Below, piece by piece: positions 11,088 to 64,000 of a stretch of DNA of 64,000 bases. A program made the translations under genes and the position numbers. This stretch comes from Candidatus Latescibacterota bacterium (GTDB lineage: Bacteria > Latescibacterota > UBA2968 > UBA8231). The notes below the pieces were generated by a model, which did no database searches, was not told the DNA's origin, and saw nothing but the letters and a program-made list of their open reading frames with translations. The DNA lies in the NCBI GenBank assembly GCA_964291625.2, contig OZ220089.1, positions 4,416,001 through 4,480,000 of the forward strand, given 5' to 3'. Numbering within the stretch: position 1 is the first letter of the stretch; each line of letters begins with the position of its first letter.

Positions 11088-14000
11088 TCAGTAGGCGACG
11101 GCGACGGTGCGGACCACGGACCGGCCCGAGTCGCCGCTGTCGACGTCGAGGTGGAGCTTGACGATGTAGATCCCCGGGGGAACGAGGTTGCCGCCGCTGT
11201 CGCGCCCATCCCAGGAGAGGGACTGCAACCCGGGGGCCACGACCCGCTCCTCGCGCCAGACGCGGCGTCCGGCCAGGGTGTAGACGCTCACCCGCAGGCT
11301 GCGCGGATCGGTGATGCGGTAGATCGACAGGCCGATCTCGGTCTGGTCGTTGATGAGGTCCCCGTTGGGCGAGAAGGGATTCGGAGAGATCGTGACCTCT
11401 TCGACCACCTCGCCTTCCAGGGGCACCGAGAGGGTCAGGGTGTTCGACTCCAGGTCCGGCACGGCATCGCCGGCCTCGACGCTCTGCCAGCGGGCCTCCG
11501 GGTCGGCGCCGGCGTTGCGCACGGCCAGGTTCAAGGTGGTGCCGTTGAGGAGCACGGGGGCCTGGAACCGGACGCGCACACGGGGGCCGGGACCGACGAC
11601 CCGGCCGCGCTCGTCGCGGGAGAGCCGGGAGTAGTCGCTGGCGTCCAGGGAGTCGCCGCGGTCATCGAAGGGATACTGGGCGCCGTCCCCCTTCTGCACG
11701 CGGAAGTAGCGCGCCAGCCGCTCGCTTTCGTCCAACTCCTCCCAGGATCGCTGGTCGGTCTCCTGCAACTCCCCGGACTCGAGCCTCCTGAAGTAGAGGA
11801 CCTTCCCCTGCTCGTCGTCGTCGAGCAGCCCCCAGGAAGCGGCCGACAGGAGGATGCCGTCCTGGGTCACGGGGACCTGCATGCTGTCGGCGGTGATGCG
11901 GTAATAGGCCCGGCTGGTGTCGGGCAGGAGCGTCACCGTGTCGGCCAGGCGCACCCAGATCGAGTCGGCCCGCTGACGGACCACGCTCAGGCGATCGCCG
12001 CCGCCGTCCGCGTAGCCGCCGTCGGGGCCGCGGGTGAACAGGCGCCGCTCCCCCTCCCGGCCCCCGTCGATCTCCATCTCGATCAGCTCCATCCGGCCGG
12101 AGGCGGGCATCGACAGCAGGAGCTCGTCGAAGCCGAGGCTGGGCGCCGGCCGGGAGATGAACCTCGGCTGCAGGAAGACGTCGAAGGTGTCGATGCGGCC
12201 CACGGCGGGCACCTCGGTGGGCGTGATCTCCGCCAGGATGCGCTCGGCCACCGGGTTTAGGAGCTCGACGCGGATCGAGCGGATGGCGGCGGCCAGATCC
12301 CGGTCGGTCGTGGTCAGGCGGACCTGGATCTGGGCGAAGCGGCGCAGTCCCGGCGAGGTCACGCGGTCGCCCTGGCGCTCGTAGGCCCGGCTCCAGGAGG
12401 ACCACCCGGCGGTGGGCACGAGGGTCGTGTCCACCGGGCCCTTGAAGCTGCCGATGAGGTTCTTCCAGGCGGTGTAGGCGATCTCCTGTCCCTGCCTGTC
12501 GAAGTAGCGTACGATCCGGCCCAGCAGGTCGCCGGAGCGGGTGCGGATCTCCATGCCGGTGCCGGGGGGCACGTCGGCCTCCCAGGTGATGGCGCCGAAG
12601 TGGCGCGGACCGGGCAGCTCGATGAGGTCGGAGGTCAACAGGACCTCCGCGGGATGCCCCTTCGAGAAGAGCTGATACTCGGCGATGGTGGGGCCCGTGT
12701 TGTAGCCTCCGCGCCGCCTCGGGTCGACGGAGACGATGCTCACTTCCAGGAAGCGCAGCGGCGGCAGGTCGTACGGGTCCAGGAGATTCTGGAAGCCGGA
12801 GACGCTGTTGTCCTCCCGGCTGCGCGGGCTGATCCGCGTCCAGTTGATCCGGCCGCTGGCGTCGAGGGAGCCGTCCGACCCGCGCACGATGTAGCCGTCG
12901 ATGTAGGGCCGCGGGCGGGAGGTGGATATGCGCATGGCGTCCAGCCAGAAGGTGGCGGCCAAGTCGACGGTCAGGACCCCGCGGTCGATGGTGGGCGACC
13001 AGACCAGGTGCAGGAAATTGGTGGAGTAATCGCCGTCGAAGCCCGGGCCGGGGGCGAAGGTGCCACCCGTGAGGAAGACGCTGCCGCCGCCCTCGATGAT
13101 GCCGGGGCTGATGTTGTCCCCCGCTCCCCAGATCTCGACATCGGCCAGGCGGGGGCGTTCACGCCGGTAGTAGTCGCGGCGCCCCTGGCGGTCGGCGCCG
13201 AGGGACTCGTAGACCTCCCGCTCCACCGGCTCCTCGGTGCCGGCCAGGTCACGGATGTAGTAGAGGATGTCGCCGCGGTCCCCCGGGTCCAGGGCGAGCC
13301 AGGCCTCCTCGCCGTCGAGGAGCTGGCCGCGCCCCTGACGCGAATCGGTGACCACGACCCGTATCGTCTGCACCATCCGTCCCGTCCACTCGGCGCTGGA
13401 GCGGTGCAGCGGGAAGTCGAAGGAGAAGGTGCGCTCGCTCTCGTTCGGCGCCTCGGTGCCCCCGACGCGAAAGAAGTCGATGCGGTCGGCGTCCTGGGCG
13501 ACGGGTTCCTGATCGGGGGCGGCGAGGAGGCGGAACTGCCGGAAGGGATCGCCGAGGTCCTCCTCGACGAAGTGGAGCCGCAGGGTGTCCACGGGGACGA
13601 CCCGCCCCAGGTCGATCTCCAGCCACCAGTCGTCGACGGGGTCGCGGGGGTCGGGCTCCCACCAGGTGCTCGGATCGCCGTCGAGGACATTGGCGGCGGC
13701 CTCCGGGTTCGAGCCGACGCGGCTGATCCCGGGGCGCAGGAAATAGGTGTAGATCGGATTGTCCTTGCGGTCGAGGATGATCTCGCCGCGCACGTCGAGG
13801 GTCTCGGTGCTGTCCACGTTCAGGATCGCCGTCTCGCCCTTTGACCTCTTCAGCCCGGGCAGGGTGCGGGTGAAGGTCTCCCGGTCGTCGAGGATGTTGA
13901 AGCGATCGCGGAAGCGGTGGGGAATCACGCTGCCATCGGCATTGAGGTCGACGGCGTGGACGGGCACGCTCCAGCGCTGCCAGTGCCGGTGGCTGTCGAC

Positions 14001-39750: not shown

Positions 39751-41643
39751 TTACTTGAGGAGGGTGACCTTCTTGTTCAGTCTCAGATCGGGGCCCTCGA
39801 TCCGATACAGATATACACCGGAGGCGACGGCGGCCCCACTCTCGTCGGTGCCGTCCCAGGTGATGTCGAAGTTGCCCGGGCCCAGGCGCTCGTCGGCGAG
39901 GGTGGCAACCTTCTGTCCCTGCTCGTTGAAGACCGTTACCCGGATGTCGGCCGACCAAGGAAGGGAGAAGTGGACCGTGGTCTCCGGGTTGAAGGGATTG
40001 GGGTAGGCCTCGCTCACCTTGTAGTCACTGGGCACCGGCCCGAACACTTCCGAGATGCTGCTGGGCACGCCCAGGTTCACCTTCTTCTGGTCGTACGGAT
40101 AGTGGGCGAGGGGATGGGTCGGCGAGATGGTGACGTCGTTGGAGACCCAGTCGTTGGACGGGATGGCGTCGCCGAAGCCGCCGATCTGCATGTGCAGGCC
40201 GTCCCAATCGGTGTCGTCGTCGATGATACAGACGTACTGGGACCAAGTGAGAGGCGTGTTCTTGGGCTCGAACTTGAAGAGGCCGGAGCCGTCCTGGCCC
40301 AGCATGGCGCCGAAGCTGGTGTTGTCGCGGCCGTTCTCGCAGACCGAGACCCACCCGTCGGGGGCCGAGAACAGGGAGTACTTGAAGTTCGGGGCCTCGG
40401 TGTGGCCGTAGATCAGGTCGCCGAAGGTGCCGTCGGCGCTGTTGTAGGCCTGTGTGTCGCCGAAGCCGTCACCGTTGCGGTTGGCCCACTTGAGGTTGCC
40501 GTCGTAGTCGAAGCGGGCGATCACCGAGGTGTGGTGGGAGGTCATGGTGAGACCCCAGGGATCGGGCGAGCCATCGTAGAAGGCGGCCAGCTCCATGGGT
40601 CCGCCCACGCGGTCGGCGCCCTTGTTGTCGTACAGGAAGAGGTCGGTCATGTCCCAGCTGGAGACCTTCTCGCCCGTCTCGATGGAGTACCCGGCGAGCT
40701 GGGCCTCGGTGCCCGAGACGCCCGCGGTGAGGTAGGCGATGCTCTTGTCGGGATTGCTGGCGATCGTCCTCTGACCGGCGCTGCCTCCGAGGTCCTCGAC
40801 GTTGATGACGCCGTTGACGCCGCCGAAGTCTTCGCCCCAGTCCTCGACGGTGGAAACGCGGTTGGCGTCCCAGTCGATGGTCAGGCGCTCGAGGAAGTTG
40901 CTCTGGCCGATGGCGATGGCCTCGCTGTAGTCGTCATTGAGGAAGACCGCCGAGAGGGGCCTGGCGCCGCCGGCGTCGGAAACGGCCGACAGGTCCATGG
41001 TGTCGTAGCCCTCGAAGTTCTCGACCCAGTCGTTGTTCATGTCGTTGACGAAGTTGAAGTCGAAGATCTGCTCCCGGCCGAGGTCCCAGTACGGGCGCCC
41101 GGGGGCCCCCAGCTTGCGGAAGACGGCGCCGGCCACCAGGTGGGGGAAGGCCTCGTCGTCCCAGGCGGCCAGGTGCAGGGTGTAGGAGCCGGCGGGGACG
41201 ACGTTGCCGTCGTTGTCGCGGCCGTTCCAGGTGATCGTGTTCTCGCCCTCGTCCATGCGCTCGCCCGCGGACTTGTAGACGAGGTAGTCGACGCCTTCGT
41301 ACACGTGCCAGCCGGGCTGGTCGCGCACGGGATCCTTGTAAGGAGCATCACCCTCGCCCTCGATGGTCAGGGGCGGGTTCTGGCCGGAGGTGTAGACGAT
41401 GAGCCAGACGGTGGCCCCGCTGCCTTCGAGCGAGAAGTTGACCTCGAGATCCGAGCCGTCGAAGGCATAGTCGGGGAAGTCCGACAGGCCTTCGATCTTG
41501 AGCACGGTCGGCGGGCCACCGCTGGTCATGTCCGAAAGGGACGTGACGTCGGGGTTGCCGGCGTGCAGGAACTGGGCGCTCGCGGTTCCTGCGAGGAACA
41601 GGAGCGTTGCCGCACCCGCGATGCCGATGCGTCTGAGATGCAT
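39751..41643 (-). CDS. Secreted protein with internal FlgD-like domain and T9SS-type-A-like/FlgD C-terminal domain
   Basis: Start MHLRRIGIAGAATLLFLAGTASA; internal ITWNGRDNDGNVVPAGSY; C-terminal YPNPFNPETTV.F...WDGTDESG..VASGVYLY...KKVTLLK. Confidence 0.85.
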   Translation of the reverse strand: MHLRRIGIAGAATLLFLAGTASAQFLHAGNPDVTSLSDMTSGGPPTVLKIEGLSDFPDYAFDGSDLEVNFSLEGSGATVWLIVYTSGQNPPLTIEGEGDAPYKDPVRDQPGWHVYEGVDYLVYKSAGERMDEGENTITWNGRDNDGNVVPAGSYTLHLAAWDDEAFPHLVAGAVFRKLGAPGRPYWDLGREQIFDFNFVNDMNNDWVENFEGYDTMDLSAVSDAGGARPLSAVFLNDDYSEAIAIGQSNFLERLTIDWDANRVSTVEDWGEDFGGVNGVINVEDLGGSAGQRTIASNPDKSIAYLTAGVSGTEAQLAGYSIETGEKVSSWDMTDLFLYDNKGADRVGGPMELAAFYDGSPDPWGLTMTSHHTSVIARFDYDGNLKWANRNGDGFGDTQAYNSADGTFGDLIYGHTEAPNFKYSLFSAPDGWVSVCENGRDNTSFGAMLGQDGSGLFKFEPKNTPLTWSQYVCIIDDDTDWDGLHMQIGGFGDAIPSNDWVSNDVTISPTHPLAHYPYDQKKVNLGVPSSISEVFGPVPSDYKVSEAYPNPFNPETTVHFSLPWSADIRVTVFNEQGQKVATLADERLGPGNFDITWDGTDESGAAVASGVYLYRIEGPDLRLNKKVTLLK

Positions 41644-54733: not shown

Positions 54734-57117
54734 AGCAGGACCAGCCTCCGCGTCTGCACCTGTCCCGCCGATTCGAGCCGGTAGAGATAGACCCCGGTGG
54801 CCAGCTCCCGGCCGCCGTCGTCGCGGGCGTCCCAGAGGATGGAGCGGGTCCCGGCGGGGCCGTCGCCGTCCAGGAGGCTGGCGACCTTCTGGCCCAGCAG
54901 GTTGTAGATGGTGAGCCGCGCCGGTCCGCCGGGCAGGGTGAAGCCGATGCGCGTGGAGCCGTTGAAGGGGTTGGGGTGGTTCTGCTCCAGGGCGAAGGCG
55001 GAAGGCACCGCGGCCGCCTCTCCCACGGCCGTCGGGACGGCCCCCGTGAGGCGCAGGTCGTCGAGGAAGAAGCGGCCCCCGAAGTTGCCCGAGAACGTCA
55101 CCTCGCGGATCTCCTTCGGCGGTCCGAAGGCGGCGAGGGGCACTTCCACCACCTGCCAGCGGTCGTCGCCGAAGCGATGGCGGCCCGGCCGCGCGGGTTC
55201 GGTCTCCACCAGTCCCTCCGCCGCCAGGTCGATCACGGTCTCGGCCAGGTAGATCGTGAACCGCGGTTGTCCCCGGACCACGGAGAGGCCGGGATGGAAG
55301 GCGAAGCGCAGGTGGCCGTAGCCCGCCGGATCCAGGGGTTCGTCGGGGAGGAACTTCACGACCCAGTCCCAGTCCTCCCAGCGCACGGGGAAGGTGGCCG
55401 AGCGGCGGCCCTGGAAGACCTCCTCCCGCTCGGCCAGGTCGAAGGAGAAGTCGTCGAGCCAGGTGCCGTTGAAGACCGACCAGCCGTCGGCCAGACTCTC
55501 GTCGTAGATCACCAGATCGGGGACCACCTCGCCGGGCTCGACCATCACCGTGGCCGTCAACCGCGAGCCGTGGGTCTCGGAGCCGGCGCGCTGCTCGACG
55601 AGGACGGATACCGTCTTCAGCCCCGGCGTTGCGTCCACCTTGAGGGAGGTCCGCAGACGCCAGGTGCGCTCCCCCACCTCTTCCAGGGGCACCTTCGAGG
55701 CGCCTCCCAGGGCGCTGAGATCGGCGGTGACCGCGGGGCTCTCCCCGCCGGGGGCCAGCCGCTCGACACGGACGCCGGCCTCCACCGCCAGGGTGGCGCC
55801 GTTCACGATCGAACCCGGGAAGGTGTGCTCCCAGGAGGCGGCGACGGGTCCGTGGGTGATCCTCAGGATGGCGCGCACGTGCCGGTCGCTGGAGACGTAG
55901 AGATTCCCCGCCTCGTCGCTGACGATCCCCACCGGGAACCCCCAGACGTCGGAGACCTCGGTACCGGTCTGGAAGCCGGTGGCGAAGTCGGCGATGCGGG
56001 CGTCGGACCCGTCGGGCTCGCTGAAGAGGACGGCGACGTTGTACCCGGGGACCGGCGCCAACTTGGCGTGCCCGGCGTGGATGGCGACGAAGGCCGCCCC
56101 GCGGTACCGGGCCGGGAACTGGTCGCGGGTGTAGAAGTGCAGCCCCATGGGCGCCAGGTGGGCGGGGATCAGCGCGGCGGGGCGCACCATGCTCTCCACC
56201 AGGGTCGAGTCCTCGGGCGAGAGCGGCAGGTTCTCCCGGTACCTGGGCAGGTCGGTGTCGACGTAGACCTGGTAGCCGTAGGCCAGGGGGGTGCCGTAGA
56301 AGCCGCCGTCGCGGATGATGTCGATCCACTCCGGCGGCAGGCTGGCGCCCTCGGTGTCGTGGCCGTTGTTGGTCGCCCACAGCTGGTTGGTCACCGGGTG
56401 CAGGGCCATGCCGATGGGGTTGCGGATGCCGCTGGCGAAGACGCGGCGGCCGCTGCCGTCGGCGTTGAAGCGCAGCACCGTCCCGCGCTCGGGGTCGGGG
56501 TGGCGGCACATGTCGCAGGGCCAGCCGACGCCGACGTAGAAGTGGTCCTGGGCCTCGTCGAAGACGATGGTGCGCGTCGAGTGCCATCCCCCCTCGGGAA
56601 GGGAGGGGACGATGTTCTCCCGTTCCTCGTAGACGCCGTCGCCGTCGCCGTCGGTGAGACGCACGATGCGGTTGGTGTCGGCCACGTACATCGCCCCCTT
56701 GTAGAAGGCCAGGCTGTGGGCGCGGGTGAAGCCGCGGGCGGCGACGATCGCCTCGTCGGCGACGCCGTCGCCGTCCCGGTCGGGCAGGGCGACGATCGTC
56801 CTGGCCCTCATGTCGGCCACATGGAGCACGCCCCCGGGACTCACCGCCATGAAGCGCGGCTGGGTGAAGTCGTAGGCCGCGAAGACGGAGGCGGAGAAGC
56901 CGGGGGGCAGGTTGAGGACGAGGTCGCGGGGGATGCCGCTGAAGCGATCCGGCACGTGGACGGGAACGGGCTGCAACCCGAGGTCCACCGTGGGCGTCAG
57001 CTGAAACGTGCCGGGCGGGTAGTCCTCCTCGCCGCCGGCGCCTTCCGTCGTCAGGCCCAGGAGCAGCAGGGCGAGGCCGGGGGCGGTCGTCCTCCAGAGT
57101 GAGCGAGGGCTGGTCAT
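54727..57117 (-). CDS. PQQ-dependent sugar (sorbosone/glucose) dehydrogenase family protein with CBM-like and T9SS-type-A-like C-terminal domains
   Basis: LNLPPGFSASVFA, HSTRTI, GIRNPIGMA, GGFYG.P, AHLAPMGLHFY, GNLYVSSD; C-terminal QNHPNPFN...WDARDDGGRELATGVYLY...RRLVLLR. Confidence 0.85.
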   Translation of the reverse strand: MTSPRSLWRTTAPGLALLLLGLTTEGAGGEEDYPPGTFQLTPTVDLGLQPVPVHVPDRFSGIPRDLVLNLPPGFSASVFAAYDFTQPRFMAVSPGGVLHVADMRARTIVALPDRDGDGVADEAIVAARGFTRAHSLAFYKGAMYVADTNRIVRLTDGDGDGVYEERENIVPSLPEGGWHSTRTIVFDEAQDHFYVGVGWPCDMCRHPDPERGTVLRFNADGSGRRVFASGIRNPIGMALHPVTNQLWATNNGHDTEGASLPPEWIDIIRDGGFYGTPLAYGYQVYVDTDLPRYRENLPLSPEDSTLVESMVRPAALIPAHLAPMGLHFYTRDQFPARYRGAAFVAIHAGHAKLAPVPGYNVAVLFSEPDGSDARIADFATGFQTGTEVSDVWGFPVGIVSDEAGNLYVSSDRHVRAILRITHGPVAASWEHTFPGSIVNGATLAVEAGVRVERLAPGGESPAVTADLSALGGASKVPLEEVGERTWRLRTSLKVDATPGLKTVSVLVEQRAGSETHGSRLTATVMVEPGEVVPDLVIYDESLADGWSVFNGTWLDDFSFDLAEREEVFQGRRSATFPVRWEDWDWVVKFLPDEPLDPAGYGHLRFAFHPGLSVVRGQPRFTIYLAETVIDLAAEGLVETEPARPGRHRFGDDRWQVVEVPLAAFGPPKEIREVTFSGNFGGRFFLDDLRLTGAVPTAVGEAAAVPSAFALEQNHPNPFNGSTRIGFTLPGGPARLTIYNLLGQKVASLLDGDGPAGTRSILWDARDDGGRELATGVYLYRLESAGQVQTRRLVLLR

Positions 57118-58228: not shown

Positions 58229-60457
58229 GTGTCTCTCGAGGGCCCGCACATCCCGAGCAGCCTCTCCGCGGCGGTCCTCGCCGGCCTCCTCCTGCTGCCG
58301 GGGCCGGCGGACTCGCAGGCGCCGTGCGGGAACTGGTCGGCCCTGACCCGGATGCGGCCGGTCAACGCTCTCGTCGCCGATTCCGGCGGCGTGTGGGCGG
58401 CCACCGACGGAGGGGTGCTGCACTTCGACCGGGAGACCGGCCGCTACGCCCGGTTCACCCGCCTGCAGGGCCTGCCCGAGGGCCGCATCACCGCCATCGC
58501 CGCCGACCCGGCGGGAGATCTGTGGTTCGGTTCCGACTTCGGCGGCATCAGCCGCTACCGGCCGGCCGGCTCACGCTTCGACCCGCTCCTGACGATCTTC
58601 GCCGACCTCGGTGTGAGGACCCTCCTCCAGGTGCGGGACAGGATGTACGTGGGCAGCGACGCCGGCATCAGCGTCCTCCTCACCGACGTCCTGCGGGTGC
58701 AGGAGAACTACTGGCAGCTGGGCGACTTCCCCCGCAACACGGGGGTGACGGGCCTGGTGGAGCACTCGGGACTCCTGGTGGCCGGCACCCCCGAGGGCGT
58801 GGCCTGGGCCGACCTGGCGGCGGAGAACCTGCAGAATCCGGACTCCTGGCTCACGGAGGACAGGCCCGGGGCGGTCGCGGCGCTCGTCTCCGCCGGGGGC
58901 GACCTGCTGGCCCTGGGTGAGACCGGGCCGTGGCGCCTGGAGGAGGGAGCCTGGCAACCGGAGCCCGCCCCGGTCGGCGTGCGCGTGCTGGGGCGCGGGG
59001 GCGGTGCGCTCCTGGCGGCCACCCGCAGCATCGTCTACGAGCGCCGCGGCGCCGGAGAGTGGACGGTGGTGGGCGCCGCGCCGGCCGAGCCGCTGGCCAT
59101 CGCCAAGGGAGCGGGGGAGACCTGGGTGGGGACGAGGGGCGGGCTCCGCTCCCTGGGAGGCCCGCCCCTTCCCGACGCCGGGGATCCCCCGGCCACCAGC
59201 TTCCACGACCTGGCCTCGACCCCGGACGGAGAGCTCTGGGCGGCGGTGGTGCCCAACGATCGGGAGGGGAGCCCCATCGGGGTGGCGCACTTGACACCCA
59301 TGGGCTGGAGGGTCCACGGAGTCGGCTCCGGCCTGCCCTCGGACGTGGCCGTGGCCGTGGAGGTCACCGGGGACGGCGGCGTGTGGGCGGGGACCTGGGG
59401 CCAGGGGATCGGGGTCCGGGCCCCGGGCGGCGGCTGGCGGCGGCTGGACCAGACGAACTCCGCTCTCCGGGGGGTCGTCGCTTCCCCCAGCTACGTCGTG
59501 GTGAACGACCTGACCGTCGATGACGGCGGCCGGGTGTGGGCCCTCAACCTGCAGGCCGGGCTGGCCGTCTTCGACCCGCGCACCGGCGCCAGCCACCTCC
59601 ACGATCTCGAGAGCCTGGGACTGACCCGGGGCCGCGAGTTGAACGAGGTCGTCGCCGACGGCAGGGGGCTGCTGCTGATGGCCGCCGTCCTCGACGGCGT
59701 CCTCCTCTTCGACGACGGCGGCACCCCCTTCGACCCGGGGGACGATCACGTCATCTCCCTCGATTCCGCCACCGAGCCGCGGATGACCAGCGACGAGGTC
59801 AGGAGCCTGGCCGCCACCGGCGAGGTCCTCTACATCGGCACGCCCGAAGGCCTGTTCCGGGCCCGCTACCGGTACGACCGCGCCACGAGGGTCTTCGAGA
59901 TCGTCAGCTGGCGGGCCTACCGGCGCGACCACGGCCTGGCCTCCCCGGTGATCACCGACATCGAGCTCGACGGCCGCGGGTCGGTCTGGGTCGGTACCGA
60001 GGGAGGTCTGACCCGGCTCCACGACTCCGGCCGCCTGGTGGAGACCTACACCGCCGACAACAGCTGCCTGGTGGACGACCACGTGCTGACCCTGCGGTTC
60101 GACGAGACCAGCGGCCAGCTCTGGATCGGCACCCGCGGGGGCCTCGGAGGGCTGCGGGTGGCCGCCGGGAGCGGAGACCTGGACGAGGGGGTGCGGATCT
60201 ACCCCAATCCCTTCGTCTCCGGGGCCGGCGCCCGGGTCACCTTCGAGGGCCTGCCGCCGGGCGCCCAGGTCCGCCTGTTCGCCGCCGACGGCCGCCTCGT
60301 GCGCACCCTGGAGTCCGACCTCGGGGGGGCGGTCGTCTGGGACGGGAGGAACGACGGCGGCTCCGCCGTCGCCTCGGGGGTGTACTACTACACCCTCGGC
60401 CTGGGCGGCGCGGAGGCGGGCGCGCGGGGGAAGCTGGCGGTGATCCGCGATGACTGA
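58229..60457 (+). CDS. porZ: PorZ-like beta-propeller protein with C-terminal sorting-type domain
   Basis: Signal peptide; two-component-regulator propeller repeats (VWAATDGG, LWFGS, VWVGTEGGL, LWIGTRGGL); FDDGGTPFD..DD motif; IYPNPF...WDGRND.G..VASGVY...GKLAVIR; directly upstream of the PorU-like gene. Confidence 0.7.
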   Translation: MSLEGPHIPSSLSAAVLAGLLLLPGPADSQAPCGNWSALTRMRPVNALVADSGGVWAATDGGVLHFDRETGRYARFTRLQGLPEGRITAIAADPAGDLWFGSDFGGISRYRPAGSRFDPLLTIFADLGVRTLLQVRDRMYVGSDAGISVLLTDVLRVQENYWQLGDFPRNTGVTGLVEHSGLLVAGTPEGVAWADLAAENLQNPDSWLTEDRPGAVAALVSAGGDLLALGETGPWRLEEGAWQPEPAPVGVRVLGRGGGALLAATRSIVYERRGAGEWTVVGAAPAEPLAIAKGAGETWVGTRGGLRSLGGPPLPDAGDPPATSFHDLASTPDGELWAAVVPNDREGSPIGVAHLTPMGWRVHGVGSGLPSDVAVAVEVTGDGGVWAGTWGQGIGVRAPGGGWRRLDQTNSALRGVVASPSYVVVNDLTVDDGGRVWALNLQAGLAVFDPRTGASHLHDLESLGLTRGRELNEVVADGRGLLLMAAVLDGVLLFDDGGTPFDPGDDHVISLDSATEPRMTSDEVRSLAATGEVLYIGTPEGLFRARYRYDRATRVFEIVSWRAYRRDHGLASPVITDIELDGRGSVWVGTEGGLTRLHDSGRLVETYTADNSCLVDDHVLTLRFDETSGQLWIGTRGGLGGLRVAAGSGDLDEGVRIYPNPFVSGAGARVTFEGLPPGAQVRLFAADGRLVRTLESDLGGAVVWDGRNDGGSAVASGVYYYTLGLGGAEAGARGKLAVIRDD

Positions 60458-63400
60458 GGGCGGTCCGAGGCTTCCTTTCCTGCTGCTGGCCGCCGCGGCG
60501 GCGGCCGCGGCCGACGTCCGGCTGGTGGGCCTCGATGACTCTTCGCTGCGCCTGGAGCACCGCGTCACCGGCCCCTGCGCCGCCTCCGAGAGCGTGCTCG
60601 TCGGCCTCCCTCCGGGCGCCGAGCCCACCCTGCACCTGCTGACTCTCGAGGAGCGGCCGGGCGGGGTGGTCTGCGGCCAGGGGTCCGAGCCGGAGCCGGA
60701 GGCGTGGGTCTCGCCGCCGCCGGCCGCCGAGCTGCTGGAGGTGGGCCGCTTCCGCCGCCAGCGCGTGGCCCGCATCCGGTTCTCCGGACGGCACGGGCAG
60801 CAACCCCTGGGCCGGGTCGTGGCCGAGATCCGCTTCGGCTCCCGCCGCGGCCCGGGACGGTCCTCCTCCCCGGGGGCGGACGAGGCCCTCTACGCCGGGA
60901 CCGTCCTCAACCACGAGCAGGCCCGCCGGTGGCGGCTGGCGCGCCGGCCGCCGGAGGCCCCGAGGCGCGCCGCCGGCGCCGCGGCCGGCCCCGTGTACAA
61001 GGTCACCATCCGCAGCACCGGGCTCTACCGCCTCACCGGCGCCGACCTGCCCGGGGCCCGGGGCGCGGCCAGCTCCGGCCTGACCCTGCTCTACGGCGGC
61101 GGCCGCCCCCTCGACCCGGACGAGCTTCGGGGGCCTCTTCCCCTCGCGCCCGTGGCGGTGATCGTCGAGGACGGGGGAGACGGCACCTTCGACGCGGAGG
61201 ACGAGCTGATGTTCTACGGCGAGGCCTCCTCCCGCTGGGAGGGGGAGGGGGAGGACAGCCGGTGGCTGCACAACCCCTTCACCGGGGAGAACGCGTACTG
61301 GCTCGCCACCGCCGATCCCGAGCGCGCCCTGCGCCGGGAGCCCCGCCCACCTCCCGCGGCGGCGGCCGCGGCCGCCGACCGCTTCACCGAGCGGGTTCGC
61401 CTCGAGGGCGAGCACTTCCCGACCCACACCACGCCGGAGAAGATCGCCAGCGGCACCGAGTGGTACTGGCTGCGGATGTCCGCCGGCGACGAGGAGACCT
61501 TCCCCGCCCTGCTGCGGTCGCCCGCCGAGGAGACGCCGGTCCTCATCCGCATGCGGGGCATCTCCCAGACGAAGGACGGGGAGTCCCTGCGATTGCGCTG
61601 GAACGGGCGTTGGGCCGGGAACGCCCGGGCCAGCGAGGACGGTCCCTTCGTCTCCGAGGTGCGGACCACGGGGGCGGTGGAGGGGATCAACGAGCTCCAC
61701 GTCCGTCACCTCCGGGGGTGGCGGGTCCTGATCGACTGGTTCGAGCTGGAGTACGAGCGCCGCCCTCACGCCGAGGCGGGGCAGCTGTTCCTGCCGGCCC
61801 GCGGGGGCGCCGCGACCTACCGGGCCACGGGTTTCGAGGAGGCTCCGCGCGTCTTCGCCGTGGAGGACGGCGGCCTGCGCGAGGTCGCCGGGCTGGAGTA
61901 CTCCCCGGCCGAGGGCCGCGTGACCTTCACCGACAGCGCCGGCCCCGGCGCCCGCTACGCCGTGGCCGGGCCCGCGGGGATCCGCCGCCCCGCGAGGATC
62001 GAGGAGCGGCCGCCCCACCGGCTCGTCGACAGGTTCTCGGGAGCGGACTACCTCGTCCTCACCCACCCCGACCTCGAGACGGAGGCCGTCCGCCTGGCGG
62101 CCTGGCGCGCCGCCGACGACCGCCACGGCCTGCCCTTCTCCACCGAGGTGGTGCTCACGGACGAGATCTACGACGCCTTCTCCGGGGGGCTCCTCGACCC
62201 GACGGCGCTGCGCAACTTCCTCCATCACGCCTTCGAGGAGGGGCGGCCTTCCCCGGGCTTCGTCCTCCTCCTCGGCGACGGCAACTTCGACTACCGGGAC
62301 AACCTGGGGACGGGGGTCGGCAACTGGGTTCCTCCCTACGAGGAGGAGGAGAGCACCTACGACGAGTGGTACGTGCGCGTCTCCGGCGCCGACGACCTGC
62401 CGGACATGGCCGTGGGACGGATCCCGGTCCGCTCCTCCGAGGAGGCCGCCGCCGTGGTCGACAAGCTGATCGCCTACGACCGCGAGCCGGAGCAGGGCCC
62501 CTGGCGCAGCCGCATGCTGCTGGCCGCCGACGACACGTACCACGCGGACAAGCCGGAGCGGGTGGAGGCGGACTTCGTCGTGGACGCGGAGAAGCTGGCG
62601 GCGGAACTGCCCCCGGATCTCGACGTGGAGAAGCTCTACCTCGTCGACTACCCCCTCGAGGGCCGCTTCAAGCCGCGCGCCCGGGAGGACTTCCTCGAGA
62701 GCTTCTCCCGGGGTTCGCTGCTGCTCACCTGGGTGGGGCACGGCAACTCCCAGGTCCTGTCCCACGAGGTCATCTTCCGCCTCAGCCAGGACCTGCAGGA
62801 GGTGAACAACGGGCGCCGCCTGCCCCTGGCCTACGGCGCCGCCAGCCAGCTGGGCATCTTCGACGATCCCAACCGGGACTCGATGCCGGAGGCCCTCCTG
62901 AAGCGGCGCGAGGGCGGCGTGGTGGCGATGATCGCCGCCACCCGCGTCGGGTTCCACCCCAGCAACATGGAGCTGGCCCGGCACTTCCACGCCAGGCTGC
63001 TCACCAGTGGCCGCGAGGGCGTCCCCGTGGGGCAGGCCCTGCTCGAGGCCAAGCTGCGGTCGGTGCAGAACCGCGACAACACGCGCCGCTTCAGCCTCTT
63101 CGGAGATCCGGGGACGCGGCTGGCGCTCCCCCGTCTGCGGGTGGAGCTGGAGGTGGCCGACACCCTGCGCGCCCTGGAGATGGCCCGCCTCGTGGGGCGG
63201 ATCACCCGCGGCGGCGAGGCGGTCCCCTCCTTCGACGGCCGGGTCCGCCTCCAGGTCTTCGACTCCAGCTCGCTGCGGCGCCGCGTCGAGCAGGGCGTCA
63301 CCCTGGAGTACCAGCGGCCGGGGAACCCGCTCTTCCGGGGGCTCTACCCCGTCGCCTCGGGCCGCTTCTCGGTGGACTTCCTCGTCCCCCGCGACATCAC

Positions 63401-64000
63401 CTACCGCGGCCTCGCCGGCAGGGCGAGCGCCCTGGCCTGGGGCCCGGGCGGCTCGGCCTACGGAGCCGCCGGGCCGCTGGCCTTCACCGGGCTCTCGGGG
63501 ACCGCGGCCGCCGAGGACGACGAGGGACCGGCGATCGCCTTCGAGCAGGCCGGCCGCGTCCTCGAGGAGGGCCACGTCCTGCGCGGCGACGCCTCGCTGC
63601 GGGCGACGCTGCGGGACGCCAGCGGCGTCAACATCACCGGCGACGTGGGCCACGGCATCCGCCTGCACCTCGACGAGGCGGTCCTCGACGTCACCCGCGA
63701 CTATCACGCCGTGGGCGACTTCCGCCAGGGGGAGGTCCTCTTCGACCTGCCCGGCTTCGAGCCGGGCCGCCACCGCATCCGCCTGGAGGCCTGGGACGCG
63801 CGCAACAACTGGGGCGAGGGGGAACTCGAGGTGCGGGTCTCGGAGGAGGTCGATGCGGATCTGGACGACCTCCTCTTCCATCCCAACCCGCTGGCCGCCG
63901 AGGGGGGCCACTTCTCCTATACCCTCAGCGCTCCCGCGGGGCGGGTGAGGATCTCCGTCCACACCCTGGCGGGACGCCTCGTCGACGAAGTGACGGCAAG
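60450..64000 (+). CDS. porU: PorU-like C25 (gingipain-family) T9SS sortase; truncated by the window end
   Basis: Not in the ORF track. Hand translation from ATG 60450: VYKVTIRSTGLYRLT, DYLVLTHP, EIYDAFSGG..DPTALRNFL, VLLLGDG.FDYR, PDMAVGRIPV, LLAADD, WVGHG, GGVVAMIAATR, LFGDP, DASGVNITG..GH, AWD..NN, HPNP. Confidence 0.88.
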   Translation, partial: MTEGGPRLPFLLLAAAAAAAADVRLVGLDDSSLRLEHRVTGPCAASESVLVGLPPGAEPTLHLLTLEERPGGVVCGQGSEPEPEAWVSPPPAAELLEVGRFRRQRVARIRFSGRHGQQPLGRVVAEIRFGSRRGPGRSSSPGADEALYAGTVLNHEQARRWRLARRPPEAPRRAAGAAAGPVYKVTIRSTGLYRLTGADLPGARGAASSGLTLLYGGGRPLDPDELRGPLPLAPVAVIVEDGGDGTFDAEDELMFYGEASSRWEGEGEDSRWLHNPFTGENAYWLATADPERALRREPRPPPAAAAAAADRFTERVRLEGEHFPTHTTPEKIASGTEWYWLRMSAGDEETFPALLRSPAEETPVLIRMRGISQTKDGESLRLRWNGRWAGNARASEDGPFVSEVRTTGAVEGINELHVRHLRGWRVLIDWFELEYERRPHAEAGQLFLPARGGAATYRATGFEEAPRVFAVEDGGLREVAGLEYSPAEGRVTFTDSAGPGARYAVAGPAGIRRPARIEERPPHRLVDRFSGADYLVLTHPDLETEAVRLAAWRAADDRHGLPFSTEVVLTDEIYDAFSGGLLDPTALRNFLHHAFEEGRPSPGFVLLLGDGNFDYRDNLGTGVGNWVPPYEEEESTYDEWYVRVSGADDLPDMAVGRIPVRSSEEAAAVVDKLIAYDREPEQGPWRSRMLLAADDTYHADKPERVEADFVVDAEKLAAELPPDLDVEKLYLVDYPLEGRFKPRAREDFLESFSRGSLLLTWVGHGNSQVLSHEVIFRLSQDLQEVNNGRRLPLAYGAASQLGIFDDPNRDSMPEALLKRREGGVVAMIAATRVGFHPSNMELARHFHARLLTSGREGVPVGQALLEAKLRSVQNRDNTRRFSLFGDPGTRLALPRLRVELEVADTLRALEMARLVGRITRGGEAVPSFDGRVRLQVFDSSSLRRRVEQGVTLEYQRPGNPLFRGLYPVASGRFSVDFLVPRDITYRGLAGRASALAWGPGGSAYGAAGPLAFTGLSGTAAAEDDEGPAIAFEQAGRVLEEGHVLRGDASLRATLRDASGVNITGDVGHGIRLHLDEAVLDVTRDYHAVGDFRQGEVLFDLPGFEPGRHRIRLEAWDARNNWGEGELEVRVSEEVDADLDDLLFHPNPLAAEGGHFSYTLSAPAGRVRISVHTLAGRLVDEVTA

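Follow-up and report, generated by a model that had tools for sequence, protein, structure and literature searches.

The porU gene of the window and its product

The DNA analysed here, hereafter called the window, is a stretch of 64,000 nucleotides from a Candidatus Latescibacterota bacterium (assembly GCA_964291625.2, contig OZ220089.1, positions 4,416,001 to 4,480,000), near the 3′ end of which lies the subject of this study, a gene for a type IX secretion system (T9SS) sortase of the PorU type whose product carries a serine in the position of the catalytic cysteine. Among Gram-negative bacteria, PorU is the one sortase known so far, and a thioester mechanism relying on a Cys/His dyad has been described for it. 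The gene occupies positions 60450..63998 of the forward strand and is 3′-open at the window end; the full-length open reading frame (ORF; locus L002, 970..4650) encodes 1226 amino acids and its stop codon is found ~650 bases past the end of the window.

Judged by its sequence, the window ORF is a PorU-type T9SS sortase. Indeed, the NCBIfam equivalog model for this protein (NF033707 T9SS_sortase, cut-off 420 bits) matches the part encoded in the window with 532.2 bits and the full protein with 536.4 bits, the latter match covering model positions 3–1078 of 1095. Starting from the N terminus, the protein has a signal-like segment, then a catalytic domain of the Peptidase C25 type (gingipain/caspase-like) at residues 534–891 (62049..63122, forward strand; Pfam PF01364, 2.9e-76) and, at its C terminus, a putative T9SS tail, to which TIGR04183 gives an E-value of 4.9e-4 and 20 bits, slightly below the cut-off of 23. 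The AlphaFold2 model of residues 520–900 has a predicted local distance difference score (pLDDT) of 89.3 and a predicted TM score (pTM) of 0.91, and places the active-site His one residue past one strand and the Ser two residues past the next strand. When the modelled C25 domain was compared with solved structures by Foldseek, the top match was RgpB (gingipain R, 1cvr; E 2.5e-20, TM 0.74), followed by Kgp and PorU (6za2, 4.6e-8) and then by CHAT proteases, separases and caspases.

A serine at the nucleophile position

The original prediction, made from the letters of the window alone, held that the His motif of this sortase is intact and that a Ser has taken the place of the Cys nucleophile, and both the reading frame and the positions that it gave for the two codons are right. 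The catalytic His of the dyad, His764, is encoded by CAC at 62739..62741 (forward strand) within the motif WVGHG and aligns with the His of PorU, whereas Ser799, encoded by AGC at 62844..62846 within the motif LPLAYGAASQLGIFDDP, falls in the column of the PorU catalytic Cys (C690). In a phmmer search of the solved structures a single chain was matched, that of Porphyromonas gingivalis PorU (6za2_A, 9.7e-50), and the pairing sets 'lplaygaaSqlgifdd' over 'piwitatCdfanyds' and 'wvgHg' over 'yagHg'; the family alignment likewise puts the Ser in the Cys column of PorU and the gingipains.

The identity of the aligned Cys is fixed by its distance from a conserved Arg. In the alignment with 6za2_A this Arg lies 32 residues after the PorU Cys, and, as given in PMC4560394, the spacing between the PorU catalytic Cys and Arg722 is that of C690–R722; since the two spacings are equal, the Cys aligned with Ser799 is the catalytic C690, the residue whose mutation yields a catalytically dead PorU according to PMC5121618 and PMC5562754. 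The counterpart of the sortase-like Arg722 in the window protein, as identified from the alignment spacing, is Arg832 (CGC, 62943..62945, forward strand).

Distribution of the Ser-type PorU

Among 168 genomes of the phylum to which the window belongs, 163 contain a match to NF033707 at E<=1e-30, and in 105 the match lies above the cut-off of the model. After removal of 11 duplicates, the nucleophile column could be read in 116 non-duplicate C25 loci, a further five loci having been left aside because they match through the C-terminal domain (CTD) only and have no C25 domain. In the family of the window (f1) there are 81 PorU genes, distributed over 66 genomes and 16 genera, 80 of which encode Ser and one Cys; in a second family, belonging to another class (f9), both PorU genes encode Ser, so that the two families together have Ser in 82 of 83 PorU genes. 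Cys, on the other hand, is found in all 27 PorU genes of nine other families (f5, f6, f7, f8, f10, f11, f12, f13 and f14) and in the six PorU2-like genes examined. Three families of the same class as that of the window (f2–f4) have a weak PorU2-like match only and no PorU proper. His is present in all 116 loci.

The 82 Ser codons are either AGC (46) or AGT (36), both of which are one transversion away from TGY, and the other serine codon box is never reached; the TCN codons which the original prediction hoped to find in support of a genuine subfamily are therefore missing, every Ser codon lying a single step from a Cys codon.

Outside the phylum census, a search of 1.84 billion representative proteins returned 13527 matching proteins; the best 150 of these together with the query gave 151 rows, of which 15 have Ser and 134 Cys, the remaining two being fragments without the site. 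For the database clusters formed at 90% identity whose active-site region was retrieved, Ser was found in 52 of 53 and Cys in one, with His in all 53. Few of the clusters bear a name, which is then either 'type IX secretion system sortase PorU' or 'C25 family cysteine peptidase'; public annotation carries no flag for the Ser at the nucleophile.

The same data bear on the most trivial explanation, also raised by the original prediction, that a TGC was misread as AGC by a sequencing or assembly error, or that the Ser is a mutation private to one strain. The two codons differ by a single base, and the assembly of the window genome (5.9 Mb in two contigs) is of the metagenome type, its contamination amounting to 6.6%, circumstances in which such an error might arise. 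However, the same codon class occurs in 82 genes of 68 genomes; all six related public records, which show 45–95% identity and bear titles naming Candidatus Latescibacterota or Gemmatimonadaceae MAGs, have Ser encoded by AGC; and a second PorU paralogue of the same genome, which scores higher on NF033707 (571 bits) than the window gene, reads ...TAASAVG... and likewise has Ser encoded by AGC. Furthermore, contigs from four public runs belonging to four studies span the site, one of them possibly being the source of the assembly; three of the four are strain variants with 15–20 other differences over 901 bases, and none differs at 62739–62741 or 62844–62846, the closest differences being at 62802 and 62885. 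Examination of position 62844 in independent data and of the consistency of Ser among relatives, which the original prediction had proposed, thus speaks with one voice, and error or private mutation was dropped as an explanation, its probability being virtually nil in view of the census, the paralogue, the clusters and the run contigs.

The sequencing runs containing this DNA carry the label of sponge metagenomes, a provenance that fits an oxic setting and does not constitute evidence for the oxidation tolerance which the original prediction considered possible. Among near-identical genomes from a single GTDB genus, three public records bear the title 'Candidatus Latescibacterota' and three others 'Gemmatimonadaceae', so that at least one of the labels must be wrong.

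Origin of the serine and the nested Cys copy

Phylogenetic trees were built from the 184 non-identical C25 domains that remained once six short and four identical rows were taken out, with the columns flanking the nucleophile excluded. The 34 Ser rows and one Cys row (P0011) form a single clade with a support of 99 in FastTree and of 99 by the Shimodaira-Hasegawa-like approximate likelihood ratio test (SH-aLRT) in IQ-TREE. The base of this clade is a polytomy made of P0011, P0013, the pair of f9 sequences and a clade of 31 Ser rows. A single origin of the Ser rows is not rejected by the approximately unbiased (AU) test (p 0.359, on the set without L109, the Cys gene of family f1), and strict monophyly of the Ser rows is absent in either tree, P0011 belonging to the basal polytomy and L109 being nested.

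With L109 added, the starred branches of the tree require at least two changes. This gene (G156:C108) encodes Cys by TGC within ...TAACQVG..., and a starred branch with a support of 99 nests it with two Ser genes from the same genus; its genome also carries a Ser copy (L108). The protein has been recorded in two assemblies, and these possibly share reads. Because it is nested among Ser genes of its own genus and a Ser copy is present in the same genome, L109 is best read as a Ser-to-Cys reversal that would have occurred in a young paralogue.

Taken as a whole, the Ser-type PorU is a real, old and selectively maintained Cys-to-Ser variant which in many genomes is the sole PorU-family protein available to a large T9SS secretome. 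It is next to certain that it arose by a one-base change (T to A, TGY to AGY) that was fixed early in the two-family clade and has been kept by selection.

Residues retained and residues acquired with the serine

The active-site His is invariant in all 184 aligned rows, and the 36 columns that are conserved to at least 0.9 across the whole family are all conserved to at least 0.94 within the Ser rows. These columns include D694–D695, E714, K741–P742, G763–H764–G765, E773, N787, D805, E814, R832, N839 and G885–D886. In a larger set of 90 Ser rows, whose tree length amounts to 18.9 changes per site and whose identity goes down to 46%, no variation is seen at 58 of the 381 columns, among them A797, A798, S799, H764, R832, G834 and R880. 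As to the nucleophile itself, the only replacement of Ser within f1 is the TGC-encoded Cys of L109; Thr, Gly, Asn, Arg and Ile are equally one step away from AGC and are absent at the site in this family.

Several other residues distinguish the Ser rows from the Cys rows. Next to the nucleophile, A798 is present in 34/34 Ser rows versus 3/150 Cys rows and Q800 in 32/34 versus ~1%; further downstream, G834 is found in 34/34 versus 1/150, H836 in 32/34 versus 13/150 and R880 in 34/34 versus 22/150. The opposite holds for N760, four residues before the His, which is present in 129/150 Cys rows and in 0/34 Ser rows, where it is replaced by T, V or S. D677 and P813 are also clade-specific, and an insertion DDR[FH]G, which corresponds to residues 556–560 of P0001 (62115–62129) and reads DDRFG in the window protein, occurs in essentially all Ser rows, whereas at four of its five columns 64–83% of the Cys rows have a gap.

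Position 880 (Arg880 in the window protein, 63087..63089, forward strand) co-varies with the nucleophile, being Arg with Ser and Cys with Cys inside the clade. Indeed, Cys880 is found only in P0011 and L109, the two Cys-nucleophile sequences inside the clade, and in 0/149 other Cys rows and no Ser row. The coupling between 799 and 880 could reflect a contact between the two residues, an activating role of the Arg or, in the Cys revertants, a disulfide.

A different assignment of the catalytic residue would dispense with Ser799 altogether, catalysis being entrusted either to another Cys of the pocket or to a water activated by the His without any covalent intermediate. In favour of such a mechanism is H836, a His gained in the clade. 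Against it, the only Cys residues of the window protein are C43 and C75, near the N terminus and outside the C25 domain, which has none; nor is there a conserved Cys column in the domain among the 90 Ser-type rows, the maximum being 24/90 at position 829, so that the alternative nucleophilic Cys by which the original prediction could have been overturned is not to be found and was dropped as a candidate. Moreover, Ser799 is invariant, even though it would not be needed by a mechanism of this type, which is accordingly judged very improbable.

Genomic setting, T9SS partners and back-up enzymes

The porU gene of the window is preceded on the same strand by a PorZ-like gene (58229..60457) encoding 742 amino acids with propeller repeats and an FlgD-Ig-type tail (Pfam Reg_prop and FlgD_ig), the end of which overlaps the start of porU by 8 bases; its match to NF052228 T9SS_PorZ (1.1e-40, 139.8 bits) is under the cut-off of 260. 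A second, better PorZ-like match is found elsewhere in the genome (C1:4257477-4259330). On the 3′ side, porU is followed by a convergent gene for a membrane protein. An antisense ORF of 1241 amino acids (60237–63962, reverse strand) mirrors porU and long overlapping ORFs exist in several other frames too; these, like the antisense ORF, are read as the shadow frames usual in DNA of very high G+C content, rather than as genes.

Potential cargo is abundant. The window genome has 102 matches to the T9SS type-A tail in total, three of which fall on the reverse strand of the window, namely at ~54739–54975 (G000:C1:4470739-4470975) in an 820-aa frame, at ~39796–40011 (G000:C1:4455796-4456011) in a 664-aa frame and at ~11130–11480 (G000:C1:4427130-4427480) in a 1043-aa frame. 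In five genomes with a Ser-type porU, i.e., that of the window (G000) and G009, G010, G129 and G131, the number of TIGR04183 type-A CTD matches ranges from 49 to 113 per genome. All five have SprA above the cut-off, a PorZ-like gene and, beside a Ser-type porU, a PorV-like gene (114–171 bits, cut-off 250); in the window genome it is the second Ser-type paralogue that the PorV-like gene follows. As to the motor and ring proteins, GldM (TIGR03517) gave no match in these five genomes and the control genomes were equally blank, so that this result is uninformative, while for GldK (TIGR03525) only generic matches below the cut-off were seen in the genomes, the model matching unrelated control genomes as well.

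The presence or absence of a Cys-type enzyme beside the Ser-type one differs among the genomes. That of the window has three C25 genes: in addition to the window PorU and its Ser paralogue, a ~1900-aa frame (L003, G000:C1:2248419-2252819) has Cys within ...LSCLNG... and matches both NF052324 'putative T9SS sortase PorU2' (206.6 bits, cut-off 450) and NF033707 (234.9 bits, cut-off 420). In 26 genomes, on the other hand (24 examined from genus g13, together with G009 and G010), NF033707 matches no gene at E<=1e-30 other than that of the Ser type; four of the five genomes in which the T9SS partners were sought belong to these 26. A scan with the Pfam C25 model of five near-complete genomes (G009, G010, G129, G131 and G133) found one gene in each, of the Ser type.

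Active enzyme or pseudo-sortase

The original prediction had left the choice between a serine-nucleophile transpeptidase and a catalytically dead scaffold. The reading favoured here is that the Ser-type PorU would be an active Ser–His acyl-enzyme, working as a CTD peptidase or transpeptidase, to which we assign a probability of roughly 0.5. What speaks for activity is that the His, the Arg and all the family-invariant residues have been kept across a great divergence, that Cys alone ever replaces the Ser, that the neighbouring substitutions were fixed together with the Ser and that many genomes have no Cys back-up. In such an enzyme, the bond preceding the CTD of the cargo would be attacked by Ser799, acting together with His764 and Arg832, the conserved Arg, and an oxy-ester acyl-enzyme would form on Ser799, to be resolved by water or by an amine contributed by the PorZ-like partner; A798, Q800, G834, H836 and R880, along with the absence of N760, would readjust the pocket to a poorer nucleophile.

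Several facts weigh against this reading. The one natural His–Ser protein of clan CD to have been assayed, Trypanosoma brucei metacaspase 4 (MCA4), is inactive and becomes active only upon the substitution S219C, and its authors knew in 2011 of no caspase-fold protein that is proteolytic by means of a Ser nucleophile (PMC3220528). At the former Cys site of the bacterial pseudo-orthocaspases, which are presumably inactive, Ser occurs more often than any other residue (PMC6426788), so that conservation of the Ser is by itself no proof of catalysis. A C-to-S mutant of separase is among the solved structures matched by Foldseek (9hm7), and the genome of the window itself holds the Cys-bearing PorU2-like C25 protein described above. 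Finally, the Flavobacterium johnsoniae cargo proteins SprB and RemA are reported to be secreted without a need for PorU, a statement for which PMC11611037 cites its reference 98; if PorU is dispensable for some cargo of this organism, a T9SS may tolerate a non-catalytic PorU.

These same facts can be turned into a coherent alternative, in which the Ser-type PorU forms no acyl-enzyme and serves as a cargo-binding or scaffold subunit of the PorU–PorV–PorZ attachment complex, the CTDs either staying on the cargo or being cut off by another protease; in some genomes the Cys-bearing PorU2-like protein could be the CTD-removing protease. We consider this pseudo-sortase a serious contender, its likelihood being nonetheless clearly short of even. 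It agrees with the inactivity of the clan CD precedents having Ser, demonstrated by experiment for MCA4 and presumptive for the pseudo-orthocaspases, and with the reported existence, in F. johnsoniae, of cargo that needs no PorU. In addition, Ser is the nearest steric stand-in for Cys, so that structure alone could retain it; a pocket that merely binds the substrate would likewise keep the His, the Arg and the residues of the groove; and, besides the window genome, at least G099 and G101 hold a Cys PorU2-like protein. The pseudo-sortase is harder to reconcile with the 26 genomes that lack any other PorU-family match and with the single C25 gene of the five genomes scanned, given the 49–113 CTD matches counted per genome. 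Furthermore, no family-invariant residue was relaxed over 18.9 changes per site, Cys is the sole replacement ever observed and the residues near the active site were fixed alongside the Ser rather than lost.

If the favoured reading, that of an active serine acyl-enzyme, is taken to its full extent, the Ser-type PorU proteins would be the first natural clan CD enzymes with a serine nucleophile, in which Ser799–His764 and Arg880/Arg832 act within a re-tuned pocket and the oxy-ester either shifts the balance between cargo release and anchoring or confers insensitivity to thiol oxidation; this wider proposal is put forward tentatively, with chances slightly under even. Should it be true, the Cys revertant with a second Cys at 880 would represent a natural switch-back experiment.

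Either outcome would be of consequence. An active enzyme would break the rule that a Cys-to-Ser change kills caspase-fold enzymes, its set of co-varying residues would show how the fold adapts to serine, and it would be useful both for the study of enzyme mechanism and for the engineering of oxidation-proof transpeptidases. An inactive one would mean that in these bacteria T9SS cargo must be processed without a PorU acyl-enzyme and that the model of the attachment complex must change outside the Bacteroidota. In the literature PorU is described as a Cys/His enzyme (PMC10202324) and other phyla of the Fibrobacterota–Chlorobiota–Bacteroidota (FCB) group are named merely as possible holders of a T9SS (PMC11285876); no description of a Ser-type PorU or of a T9SS in Latescibacterota was found in a survey whose coverage did not extend to the PorU structure paper or to any supplements, where an earlier remark is possible, and on serine nucleophiles in clan CD the MCA4 paper alone was found.

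Comparison with known systems

The Ser-type PorU resembles PorU (NF033707, 6za2_A) in its full-length architecture, in its C25 domain with the catalytic His, in its putative C-terminal T9SS tail and in the conserved Arg located 32–33 residues past the nucleophile; PorV-like and PorZ-like genes are nearby, in fitting positions, though they score below the cut-offs of their models. It differs from PorU in having Ser799 in place of Cys690, in the residues A798, Q800, G834, H836, R880, D677 and P813, in the DDRFG inserted at 556–560 and in the loss of the N that precedes the His by four residues in 129 of the 150 Cys-type rows. Moreover, unlike that of P. gingivalis PorU, its host phylum is of the Latescibacterota type and not Bacteroidota.

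The gingipains are secreted proteases, specific for Arg or Lys, that use a Cys nucleophile. RgpB and Kgp (MEROPS C25; PDB 1CVR and 4RBM) belong to the same Pfam family as the Ser-type PorU and provide its best structural matches, but the identity is only 15–20% and, according to PMC4560394, the gingipains do not have the sortase-type Arg. The PorU2-like proteins (NF052324), for their part, share with the Ser-type PorU a C25 domain with the His and occur in the same genomes, but are ~1900 aa long and have Cys within the motif SCLNG.

Two precedents exist for the replacement of Cys by Ser within the same fold class. In T. brucei MCA4 (clan CD, C14B) the His is kept while the Cys has become Ser, and PMC3220528 presents this protein as a selectively retained and functionally important pseudopeptidase. 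However, MCA4 belongs to another family and another cellular setting and works beside active Cys paralogues by which it is processed, whereas many genomes with a Ser-type PorU have no Cys paralogue; furthermore, the inactivity of MCA4 has been measured. The bacterial pseudo-orthocaspases, in which Tyr–Ser replaces His–Cys, are similar in that a Ser is conserved at the former Cys site across many members (PMC6426788), but these proteins have lost the His, whereas the PorU clade has kept it in every sequence examined.

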